64,000 nucleotides of DNA from Paracoccaceae bacterium (GTDB lineage: Bacteria; Pseudomonadota; Alphaproteobacteria; Rhodobacterales; Rhodobacteraceae): contig OZ241915.1 of NCBI GenBank assembly GCA_965203795.1, forward strand, positions 2,494,255 through 2,558,254, written 5' to 3'. Every line of letters begins with the position of its first letter. Position 1 is the first letter of the stretch. Under the pieces are notes generated by a model, which made no database searches, was not told the origin of the DNA, and saw only the letters and a program-made list of their open reading frames with translations. Shown piece after piece: positions 27,250 through 31,989 of this stretch. The translations under genes were made by a program, and so were the position numbers.

Positions 27250-27258
27250 TCCGCGCTC
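27250..27258. repeat. Target-site duplication TCCGCGCTC (left) of IS copy 2
   Basis: The identical 9-mer recurs at 31981-31989, immediately outside the right inverted repeat. Confidence 0.85.
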
Positions 27259-27435
27259 GGGTGCGGTCCAAATTTTTGGGTTGAACCTGTTCCGCTGTCC
27301 CGGCGTTGGCCGGGACCGGCGCGGGGGGGGTGCAAACGCGCCTCCGCGGGCCGGGATGGATCGGTCCCGGCGCGGCTGCCGAAGACCCGCGAACGGCGGG
27401 CGCCGCGCATCCGGGCGCGAGCAGCGGAGGCATCA

Positions 27436-27761
27436 TGGCAGGCAAGACGAAGGACCCGGAGTTCCGCCATCCGAACACGGTGGCGCATATGCGAAGCTTG
27501 ACGGACGAGGAGGCGGCGGAGCATCCTCCCGTGATCCGCAAGGCCGGCGGCGTCCACGCGGAGTATTGGCGCGAGGGCGGCCGTGTGCGCTGCCGGGAGG
27601 TCGGGGCGGGCGAAGCGTCCGGCGGCCCGGCCCCGTCCTGCCCGGACTGCGGCCGGTCGATGGAGCGGCAGGGCCGGATCGGGAAGACGCTCCCGGCGCG
27701 CCTCGGGCAGGCCGGGATCAAGCGCAGGCATTTCCGCTGCCGCGAGTGCGGCGGCGGCATC
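27436..27761 (+). pseudogene. ISKra4-family transposase, N-terminal fragment
   Basis: Reads MAGKTKDPEFRHP...CPDCGRSMERQG...FRCRECGGG, then homology to copy 1 ends. It also lacks the ~170-nt segment present in copy 1. Confidence 0.7.
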
Positions 27762-28081
27762 GCCTCCTTCGGCGGCCTCGGCCCGGACGGCCAAGGACGC
27801 GGCGCTTGCGAACCGCGCCTTCAATCCGAATACTTCCATCGTGGGTCTCCTTGCCGATTCAGTCGATGAAAACAGCTTGGTGACCCACGCCCCTCAGGGC
27901 AAGGGGTGGAGTGCCATCATTACCCGAACTCAATCACTGCTGTCGGCGCGCCGCGTCCCGGATGCCGTGCCTCCCGTCGGCCGGGAGGCAGGCGGCGCTG
28001 TCTTCCTTCCGGCGCCGCCGGCCCGACTCGGAAACGGGAACGCGTCCGCTCCGGACGGCCGCCGCATCAACACCGCTTGGC

Positions 28082-30991: not shown

Positions 30992-31123
30992 GCCGTCCTC
31001 CCCTGCCGCGTTCCGCAAGCGGTGCACCGATGGTTCTGCAAATTCCGCCGGGCATGTCCAGCCGGTTTCGCGGCTTGCAGCCCCCGGCCGAAGCCCCGTA
31101 GCGCGAAGCGCGGCGGGGCGAGG

Positions 31124-31958
31124 CCGCCAGTTCCGAAAGCTACGGGGAGGCGAGCCGCAAGCTCGGGAATCTTGCCGGCGTCCGCGTTCCGATGACCGCG
31201 GGCGAGGTCGAGGGCGTTCCCGGCGAGCGGGAGGACGGCGCGGCGAAGACCCGCGAGGCGAAGGCCATCGTCCCTGCACGGCCGAAAGCCGGAACCCGAA
31301 GACCGGGGAGCCGCGGAAGGACAGGGGCAGCAGTTCGGCCGGCGTCCGCATCGACAGCGCGCGGTCGGAAGGCGGGATCAGCCGGGCGTCGGAGTTCGCC
31401 GCCCGCCTTGAGCGGTTCGGGCACCGGGAGGGCCTGTTCGAGGCCGGGGAGCTGGTCGTGCTGTCCGACGGGGCCGCCTGGATCCGGAACGTCTGCGAGG
31501 AGGTCTTCGCCGGCATGGGGACGACCTTCATCCTCGACCAGTTCCATGCCCTCGATTGCGCGGCGGCGGCGGTGCGGGTCCTCGCTCCGGACAAAGCCGG
31601 GCGGAAGGCGCGGATGGAGAGGATCAAGGCGCAATTGAACGGCGGGCGGGTCGATCTCGCCATCGCCGGCCTGAAGCCGCACCGCCACCGCGACGAGGCC
31701 ATCGAGGCCTGCGTCCGCTGCATGGAGGCGAACAAGGACCGGATGCGCTGCGACGCCTGCCGGAAGCGCGGATTGCCGGTCGGGTCCGGGGTCGTGGAGA
31801 GCGCCTGCAGGCGGATCGTCGGGAGCCGGTTCAAGCGGTCGGGCTGCCGCTGGTCGAAAGCGGGCGCCAACGCCCTGCCCGCCGCCGAATGCTGCATCGA
31901 CAACAACCGCTGGGCCGACTTCCTCGATTGGAGGGCCTGCCGCGCCGCAGCCGCTTGA
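31124..31958 (+). pseudogene. ISKra4-family transposase, C-terminal fragment
   Basis: Contains VVLSDGAAWIRNVCEE...DQFHALD...RWSKAGANALPAAECCIDNNRWADFLDW. It has a ~130-nt internal deletion relative to copy 1 and the same frame break at CGTCCCTGC. Confidence 0.75.
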
Positions 31959-31980
31959 CCCAAAAATTTGGGCCGCACCC

Positions 31981-31989
31981 TCCGCGCTC
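31981..31989. repeat. Target-site duplication TCCGCGCTC (right) of IS copy 2
   Basis: Matches 27250-27258 exactly. Confidence 0.85.

Follow-up and report, generated by a model that had tools for sequence, protein, structure and literature searches.

A caspase-ankyrin gene within an ISKra4-family insertion sequence of a Paracoccaceae bacterium: a probable non-autonomous, passenger-carrying derivative upstream of mdh

How did a complete gene for a caspase-ankyrin protein come to lie between the inverted repeats of a single insertion sequence (IS), and does its carrier still move? A locus in a Paracoccaceae bacterium (assembly GCA_965203795.1) raises these questions. The DNA analyzed, here called the window, is a stretch of 64,000 nt, positions 2,494,255–2,558,254 of the forward strand of contig OZ241915.1. 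The element under study, copy 2, occupies window 27259–31980 (4722 bp) next to mdh and has ISKra4-family ends; an uninterrupted copy in the same window, copy 1, serves as the reference. Copy 2 is very probably a non-autonomous, passenger-carrying derivative of such an IS, resembling the mobile insertion cassettes (MICs) and transporter IS (tIS) elements, and this reading explains the observations below best.

The element is bounded by the following features, with IRL and IRR for the left and right inverted repeats and TSD for the target-site duplication.
27250–27258: left TSD copy, TCCGCGCTC, contiguous with the conserved flank on the mdh side; the empty site has one CCCGCGCTC
27259–27281, plus strand: IRL, GGGTGCGGTCCAAATTTTTGGGT, 22 of 23 positions complementary to 31958–31980; the tip is the same in copy 1 and in the third copy, L009
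31958–31980, minus strand: IRR, the near-perfect inverse of IRL (22/23)
31981–31989: right TSD copy, TCCGCGCTC, abutting IRR

A sequence-only reading of the region had placed a 9-mer directly outside both inverted repeats, and the duplication was found there, perfect at 27250–27258 and 31981–31989. The inverted repeats follow a 22–23 nt consensus, GGGTGCGGnCCAAATTTTTGGGy, which matches four times in the window, at both ends of two elements, against 0.00 expected. The 9-mer TCCGCGCTC occurs eight times in this G+C-rich DNA (4.2 expected); the chance of a 9/9 match at both exact repeat-adjacent positions is about 1e-5. The flanks outside the two 9-mers differ between the sides, thus the duplication is not part of a longer genomic repeat, which had been named as a point to be checked. 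Perfect 9-bp duplications are found at three independent copies, GAACCTTAT for copy 1, TCCGCGCTC for copy 2 and GGCACGGCA for L009.

The two cargo-free copies used for comparison are as follows.
Window 10796–12554, plus strand: copy 1, 1759 bp, uninterrupted, with TSD GAACCTTAT at 10787–10795 and 12555–12563
L009 5822–7576: third IS copy, in a conspecific genome, with TSD GGCACGGCA, 91% identical to copy 2

The transposase gene of copy 1 has two frameshifts, and joining its three frames gives a 518-aa product. The repaired product scores 223 bits with the NCBIfam ISKra4 model NF033572 (cut-off 205) and aligns end to end with the intact 517-aa metagenome relatives P0146 and P0147 at 78–80% identity; P0146 itself scores 260.7 bits. 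The stitched transposase remains of copy 2 score 138.6 bits, which is below the cut-off, and cover profile positions 193–422, the C-terminal half alone. The family assignment of copy 2 was made through its 84–94% DNA identity to copy 1 and L009, not through the model score. By this alignment the ends of copy 2 are assigned to an ISKra4-family IS. The C-terminal 226 aa encoded by copy 2 are 91% identical to P0146. The plasmid collection contained just distant ISKra4 relatives, with less than 40% identity.

The site before insertion can be seen in a sister lineage, L005/L006, which is 92–93% identical to the window. There mdh directly adjoins the PG_binding gene, and the sequence at the site is GCGCGC-CCGCGCTC-GCGG-CCCGGTTTCGAG; the 9-mer is present once, as CCCGCGCTC, and carries one mismatch. 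Judged by alignment, this arrangement is that expected of the empty site. The 22/23 repeats, the duplication and the one-copy empty site bear out the earlier description of everything between the 9-mers as a single transposition footprint with intact inverted repeats. Conspecific genomes lack the loaded unit at the site: in L004 another island, of 6 kb, is found there, and in L007 a rearrangement begins within the PG_binding gene. As conspecific empty sites, L010–L013 were uninformative, since they end or diverge before the site.

One stretch next to the element belongs to the site allele of this strain.
31990–32069: 80 bp beside the right TSD copy, outside the element

This stretch, which includes the palindrome TTGCCGATATCGCGGCAA, is absent from L004, L005/L006 and L012; at the empty site its place is taken by GCGG.

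What lies between the ends is a mosaic. From left to right it consists of the following segments.
27259–27758, plus strand: IS 5′ segment, the leader followed by what remains of the N-terminal part of the transposase gene (ATG at 27435), 84–89% identical to copy 1 and 88% to L009
27759–27805, plus strand: degraded IS-like stretch that holds the left junction, in register with L009 6535–6562
27806–27950, minus strand: segment B, 145 bp, with ribosome-binding site AAGGAG and ATG at 27839; possible 5′ stub of a gene
27951–28081, minus strand: downstream spacer, 131 bp, intergenic DNA as in the native caspase cluster
28082–30991, minus strand: cargo gene, 969 aa, with GGAGGA upstream
30992–31118, minus strand: cargo upstream region, 127 bp, homologous to L003 10417–10559 and L002 14879–14983
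31119–31980, plus strand: IS 3′ segment, with 91.6% identity to copy 1 and 94.2% to L009; it covers the C-terminal two thirds of the transposase gene

IS homology at the BLAST level stops at 27758 and resumes at 31119, in agreement with the positions given earlier (about 27761 and about 31110–31124). The local alignment of 27759–27805 scores 26 against a background of 14.7 ± 2.9, a score that 0.4% of background segments reach, so the IS continuation to about 27805 is probably real. A similar continuation at the right junction (31047–31118) was rejected; it is at background level, with 45% of background segments scoring as high. The insert is thus 3313–3360 bp, and 22–69 bp of the IS transposase gene are missing. 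The two internal junctions were searched for short repeats: apart from microhomology of a few bases (CGGC; GAGGCCG/GACGCCG), they have none of their own. The junction strings of the IS-cargo chimera are GTGCGGCGGCGGCATCGCCTCCTTCGGCGG and CGGCGGGGCGAGGCCGCCAGTTCCGAAAGC, with GGGTGCGGNCCAAATTTTTGGG as a companion search string.

The complete 969-aa gene with its own Shine-Dalgarno sequence was confirmed on the minus strand, 30991 to 28082. The second, truncated gene, of which the first ~26 codons had been proposed alongside it, fared less well. It does have a good ribosome-binding site and an ATG at 27839, but the identity of the gene was not confirmed: no homolog of the 26-codon open reading frame (ORF) MEVFGLKARF... 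was found, codons 12–26 probably run antisense through IS-derived DNA, and the native downstream gene of the relatives starts with MKSIGTPL. Window 27951–28086 (136 bp, the spacer plus the gene end) is 98.5% identical to L002 12801–12936. Native-cluster homology ends at 27951 (L002) or 27987 (L003), and segment B matches, among the fetched loci, L001 alone (98%).

Such a mosaic could be an assembly artifact. Both of its components are repeated in the genome, with three caspase-ankyrin paralogs and several IS copies, which is a setting for assembler errors, and misassembly had been named as the outcome that would undo the earlier reading. The scaffold L001 (3680 bp; sample SAMN12291595, assembly ERZ23495669), from an independent sample, decides this point. 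L001 aligns to window 31299–27627 and has both junctions, the 145-bp segment B and a 129-bp deletion in the IS base for base. It is 95–99% identical to the window outside the 3′ ankyrin part, and its 2–4% point differences indicate that it does not come from the same reads. The presence of both junctions in an independent scaffold excludes misassembly and indicates a single origin. The chimera is real and arose once; a chimeric assembly of IS reads and caspase-gene reads has a negligible probability.

L001 also orders the events. It carries the 129-bp deletion and keeps the DNA that a second, 194-bp deletion has removed from copy 2; a further 15-bp deletion is particular to L001. Therefore the capture and the 129-bp loss came first, and the 194-bp loss followed later.

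Where the captured gene came from can be read from its relatives. The cargo is identical to P0001, and the 3.94-Mb contig that carries it also has the paralogs P0002 and P0005, giving three in the source genome. In L002 and L003 a native cluster contains OmpA, a 540-aa caspase, the caspase-ankyrin gene and a 513-aa caspase with DUF4384, and no IS is nearby; the cargo does therefore occur in a non-IS context, for which a search had been suggested. The flanks in the L003 genome are 98.3–99.3% identical to the window, indicating that this genome is conspecific. Over 2.4 kb (30955–28568) the cargo and the L003 gene are 96–100% identical per 200-bp window, mostly 98–100%, and over the last ~400 bp, the C-terminal ankyrin block, they are 78–86% identical. 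The over-called N-terminus of P0002 carries upstream DNA of the native type, the same as the upstream piece of the cargo. The near-identity to the native conspecific gene and the shared upstream DNA show that the cargo is a duplicate of a resident gene. The capture of foreign DNA, one of the two routes offered by the sequence-only reading, is contradicted by this near-identity.

The upstream region of the cargo contains the motif GGCTGGACATGCCCGGCGGAATTTGCAGAA (GGCTGGACATGCCC...TTGCAGAA) at about 31022–31063 on the minus strand. The cargo gene has probably brought its own control region along, as the homology of this region to the native loci suggests.

The motif was also seen elsewhere. In the native clusters a version of ~45 nt, GGCTGGACATGCCCGGCGGAATTTGCAGAAyyAT, is found ahead of both the caspase-ankyrin and the OmpA gene, with one further occurrence.
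L002 7140–7186 and 14930–14985: motif copies
L003 7095–7140, 10470–10530 and 15486–15524: motif copies

Its positions suggest a possible promoter or operator common to these genes. A similarity to it at window 61228–61260 was dropped, being no better than chance and falling within an ISAs1-type transposase gene. The motif is embedded in a module of ~115 bp that includes a GCCCCCGGCC/GGCCGGGGGC hairpin and is seen in two contexts, L002 14874–14988 and L003 10412–10533. The 540-aa caspase gene and the promoter module are separated by ~470 bp (L003 9947–10416), which are also present at the native locus of the source genome and absent in L002; gene callers read through this stretch and over-extend the caspase-ankyrin ORF by 168–186 codons, as in the N-termini of P0002 and P0006.

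The recurrence of the module brings up the idea that the 3.3-kb insert is itself mobile, a promoter-bearing cassette or a unit like a miniature inverted-repeat transposable element with a passenger, which jumped into the IS. The gene-upstream end of the insert is within 5 bp of the boundary of the ~115-bp module, and the module is found elsewhere. No inverted or direct repeats are present at the junctions, however, and IS DNA was lost rather than duplicated. The segment B end has no counterpart among the fetched loci other than L001, and the native L002 gene lacks the module altogether. This origin of the insert is very unlikely.

A collapsed composite transposon is a further route to the same arrangement. 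Two complete IS copies would have flanked the caspase gene and lost their inner ends, leaving the order IRL, transposase 5′ part, gene, transposase 3′ part, IRR. Composite transposons are common, and the genome has multiple IS copies of the family. Copy 2, however, has one IRL and one IRR, and its arms are complementary halves of one copy, which is not the structure of a composite transposon. The break points are nearly contiguous in IS coordinates, with just the 22–69 bp missing, which argues for one event; two independent deletions are unlikely to meet in this way. The perfect 9-bp duplication fits one element, not the outer ends of two insertions, and the native gene in the relatives has no IS on either side. 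A collapsed composite is highly improbable, and capture into a single IS copy is the preferred reading.

Can the derivative make its own transposase? The arms of copy 2 correspond to copy 1 as follows.
Copy 1 10796–11175 to copy 2 27259–27635: 84% identity
Copy 1 11361–11492 to copy 2 27627–27758: 89% identity
Copy 1 11564–11637 to copy 2 31119–31192: 85% identity
Copy 1 11750–12554 to copy 2 31176–31980: 91.6% identity

The 194-bp deletion is at about 27627–27635, between CCGGCyCCG repeats. The 129-bp deletion, at about 31192/31193 between GCCGGCGTCCsGGTT repeats, takes out an invariant IDGTGVP block (D259, G260, G262 and P264 in alignment A1), which is most likely the region of the first catalytic aspartate. 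A −1 frameshift between AKAIV and PARPKAG is shared by copy 1 (~11851), copy 2 (~31273) and L009 (~6870), and is also found in the ORFs P0195 and P0208 of relatives; the intact relatives read AKAIVRYTAESRNPK, and the string at the site is GCCATCGTCCCTGCACGG. The sequence-only reading had missed both deletions of copy 2, the frameshift that it has in common with copy 1 and the two frameshifts of copy 1.

As judged from these lesions, copy 2 cannot make a transposase, and the element is non-autonomous. Since the gene is split, frameshifted and without the invariant motif, any movement needs a transposase in trans. Copy 2 lacks the intact transposase frame with catalytic motifs that defines an autonomous or transporter IS. 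The second route considered earlier, an IS turned into a cargo-carrying transposon, accordingly does not hold in the autonomous sense.

The same frameshift at three loci, each with its own TSD, indicates that defective copies moved in trans, unless recoding bypasses the shift. We infer trans-mobilization of defective copies from this distribution, and the loaded unit, having the same ends, could be moved in the same way.

Where the element landed is also informative. For ISKra4-group elements, TnGBS and ISLre2, insertion takes place at a constant distance ahead of sigma-A promoters, with a spacing to the −35 box of 13–17 bp in the ISKra4 group and a peak at 16 bp (Guerillot et al. 2014, PMC3942029). 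In that study the near-perfect inverted repeats of the ISKra4 group go with promoters on either side of the element. The boxes next to the three IS copies are listed below.
Copy 1, 12571–12599: TTGCAA-N17-TAGAAT, 16 nt from IRR, 9/12 matches, the sole promoter-like scan match in the region
Copy 2, 27214–27242, minus strand: TTGCGC-N17-TACAGT, 16 nt from IRL and facing mdh, 7/12 matches
L009: TTGTGC-N17-TAGGAG, 16 nt from IRL

The pattern TTGnnn-N17-TAnnnT is thus found 16 nt from an inverted repeat in 3/3 IS copies, and it occurs five times in the 128,000 positions of the two window strands. By this spacing the three IS copies fit the published ISKra4-group targeting rule exactly. An insertion upstream of the −35 box is predicted to leave the mdh promoter intact.

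The spacer between mdh and the PG_binding gene is a hot spot; its structure or break point differs in each lineage compared (window 27176–32215 against L004 3815–10000, L007, L011 and L012). The empty site has two divergent −35-like boxes 32 nt apart. The 6-kb island of L004 contains an IS5-type transposase, DUF2971 and ThiF. At its end lies an ISKra4-type repeat tip of 13 nt, GGGTGCGGGCCAA; the distance from this tip to the PG_binding gene's box, TTTACT-N17-TAATTT, is exactly 16 nt. From this position the tip is read as a second, independent promoter-targeted insertion, 9 bp from the copy 2 site. The island was considered as a decayed copy of the loaded unit and rejected, as it has no transposase remnant and just the 13-nt inverted-repeat tip at the other promoter.

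A simple model is proposed for the path to the present element. One illegitimate recombination, or a template-switching repair, in the transposase gene would have swapped 22–69 bp for a 3.3-kb mosaic of the resident caspase-ankyrin gene duplicate, its upstream region, ~130 bp of downstream spacer and the 145 bp of segment B. The capture and the 129-bp deletion would precede the split between the window and L001 lineages, and the 194-bp deletion would have followed in the window lineage. An ISKra4-type transposase would have placed the element 16 nt upstream of the mdh −35-like box, leaving the 9-bp duplication. The element would have been frameshifted already at arrival, so that the transposase was supplied in trans. 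It would now be MIC-like, a third, promoter-equipped caspase-ankyrin paralog that can be moved again just by a related intact transposase. Whether the cargo was aboard before arrival or was captured in place is evenly balanced in our judgment.

Capture in place leads to the strongest competing explanation, a fossil. The frameshifted IS would have inserted at mdh, the gene would have been captured there later, and the unit would never have moved; L001 would be the orthologous copy at the mdh site. The one documented locus is in keeping with this, as is the 194-bp deletion, which could be secondary decay continuing in place. The allele could also have spread by homologous recombination. Counted per 200 bp, most of 2.6 kb of the left flank of the window shows 0 differences from L004, and the 200 bp touching the site on each side have 13 and 19 differences. 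These divergent patches beside the site bear the signature of short recombination imports, and the whole allele may have passed between strains. Because the 200 bp on each side are such imports, dating of the insertion by strain presence or absence was abandoned. Against a fossil speak the clean empty site in the sister lineage, the conspecific genomes without the unit at the site together with the independent insertion in L004 9 bp away, the defective copies of this IS lineage at three or more loci, each with its own TSD, and the three paralogs in the source genome versus one on a 2.87-Mb contig of a conspecific genome. We regard the fossil as a real possibility, with somewhat less than an even chance.

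In the flanks at large, patches with 12–19 differences per 200 bp from L004 were seen at 26256–26455, 27056–27255, 32078–32277, 33678–33877 and 34878–35077; elsewhere the flanks have 0–5.

Several points weigh against copy 2 as a passenger-carrying element mobilized in trans. A second locus of the loaded unit was not found in scans of species-representative genomes and metagenome contigs, with the source genome covered within the window. In these scans, the species-representative genome contigs, among which this lineage is evidently not included, gave no match to the cargo protein or to the inverted-repeat pattern, and the metagenome contigs gave none to the left junction. The flanks of L001 end inside IS DNA, so that the scaffold does not give its location. 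Intact transposases are known from related populations (P0146) rather than from the source genome. Recoding might in principle bypass the shared frameshift, with no slippery site evident. The mdh box is weak (7/12) and under the threshold of the scan tool, and the L009 box is weak too and does not pass the scan; thus the promoter reading at these two copies rests on geometry. The 80 bp beside the right TSD copy, found in no relative, are not accounted for by this reading, and the exact left junction is ambiguous over 47 bp.

Viral contigs scanned with the inverted repeat also gave no match. A 21-nt inverted-repeat match in the metagenome contigs, L008, was dropped for want of IS homology around it.

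The earlier suggestion that the cargo has gained a way to move can thus be kept in part. The IS ends and the duplication are intact, and no second locus was found in the collections searched; mobility is a possibility, not a finding. A bolder extension is that the loaded unit is a working vehicle, moved in trans to promoter-proximal 'safe' sites by intact ISKra4-type transposases, so amplifying and diversifying a periplasmic caspase-ankyrin gene. We consider this unlikely. If true, the element would act as an engine that copies and diversifies an envelope protease family, seen at the point where an IS turns into a cassette.

What does the passenger encode? The domain order of the 969-aa protein is signal peptide, Peptidase_C14, ankyrin block, PG_binding_1, EAERE coiled coil and a further ankyrin block. 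Pfam matches are Peptidase_C14 (PF00656) with 8.6e-38 over residues 29–249, Ank_2 with 1.3e-38 and PG_binding_1 with 3.8e-11. The N-terminus, MASKRGMAALALAAAALWMPTVAAAAS, is of the Sec type. A putative His/Cys dyad, assigned by motif alone, consists of the His in YAGHG and the Cys in LDACRN. The ORF is open in both diverged copies, with 969 aa in the window and 965 aa in L001, and pN/pS is 0.4–0.5 (about 0.5 over 710 codons, window versus L001). The open ORFs and this ratio are mild evidence that the cargo gene is still used.

The protein had been called effector-like, and this label is not supported. Models of type IV secretion system (T4SS) Ank proteins (Dot/Icm effectors) give 65–85 bits against cut-offs of 600, via the ankyrin repeats alone. 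The Sec-type signal peptide, PG_binding_1 and the native chromosomal cluster linked to OmpA point to the cell envelope, not to a host-injected effector; the family to which the protein belongs is a large one, located in such chromosomal OmpA-caspase clusters. PADLOC and PDB sequence searches with the cargo returned just ankyrin-driven or weak caspase matches. Like other bacterial caspase homologs (Peptidase_C14, orthocaspase/metacaspase-like), the cargo has a caspase domain, His/Cys dyad motifs and a modular C-terminal extension. It differs from them in that its subfamily is predicted to be Sec-exported, has ankyrin blocks and PG_binding_1, and belongs to OmpA-linked clusters of three caspases. 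No member of this subfamily with a tested function was found in the searches made.

Among P0001, P0002 and P0005, identity is at least 98% over the first ~720 residues and 70–75% in the C-terminal ankyrin block (window 28082–28570, ~160 codons), and the changes are concentrated at those repeat positions where the binding surface is usually formed. This looks like concerted evolution acting on the protease part, with diversification of the recognition part. A 216-aa stand-alone ankyrin-repeat protein, encoded at window 53987–54637 on the minus strand, is ~33% identical to the ankyrin blocks of the cargo.

Passenger-bearing IS derivatives are already known, and copy 2 is not a new kind of mobile element. 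A MIC, such as MIC231 of the IS231 group in Bacillus cereus, usually has no transposase gene left, is present in several copies and is moved in trans by its cognate IS. Copy 2 likewise has IS-type repeats and a TSD around a non-transposase gene and no working transposase, but it keeps three quarters of the transposase gene as debris, has one documented locus, and its trans-mobilization is proposed from related copies. A tIS, in the ISfinder sense, holds its passenger gene or genes within one pair of IS repeats and retains a functional transposase. Copy 2 is likewise a single unit with a passenger between one repeat pair, without the functional transposase. Literature searches on MIC and tIS yielded nothing usable.

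With the ISKra4 group (p-MULT 4 Mutator-like DDE transposases) copy 2 shares the family of the profile hidden Markov model, the near-perfect repeats, the 9-bp TSD, the 16-nt rule and a passenger inside the ends. Four ISKra4 elements with extra genes are listed in PMC3942029. In contrast to such elements, the passenger here lies inside the transposase gene and destroys it, instead of standing beside an intact gene, and it is a recent duplicate of a resident gene. TnGBS and ISLre2 have the same fixed spacing to the sigma-A −35 box, 15–17 bp with a peak at 16 (PMC3942029). Unlike copy 2, they have a p-MULT 3 transposase and oriented insertion, and TnGBS is conjugative.

On the preferred reading, copy 2 would be a documented intermediate between an IS and a transposase-less cassette, known together with its junctions on both sides, its donor locus, its empty target site and a further, diverged copy. 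It would illustrate how a resident gene and its putative promoter region can be duplicated into a vehicle that keeps the ends and the target rule of the parent IS. It would also extend the ISKra4-group promoter-targeting rule to a high-GC lineage, apparently alphaproteobacterial as judged from the order of sucC and mdh alone, and indicate that frameshifted copies of that IS have spread. For host biology it carries little weight as long as the secreted caspase-ankyrin family has no known function.

Two other features of the window were recorded. Two tandem ISAs1-type transposase genes (DDE_Tnp_1_assoc plus DDE_Tnp_1), 87–95% identical, lie at 60049–62974, the second with an internal deletion. 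A cobalamin riboswitch (118.9 bits) and a tRNA-Ala(GGC) gene are located at 16192–16409 and 16656–16731, respectively, on the minus strand.

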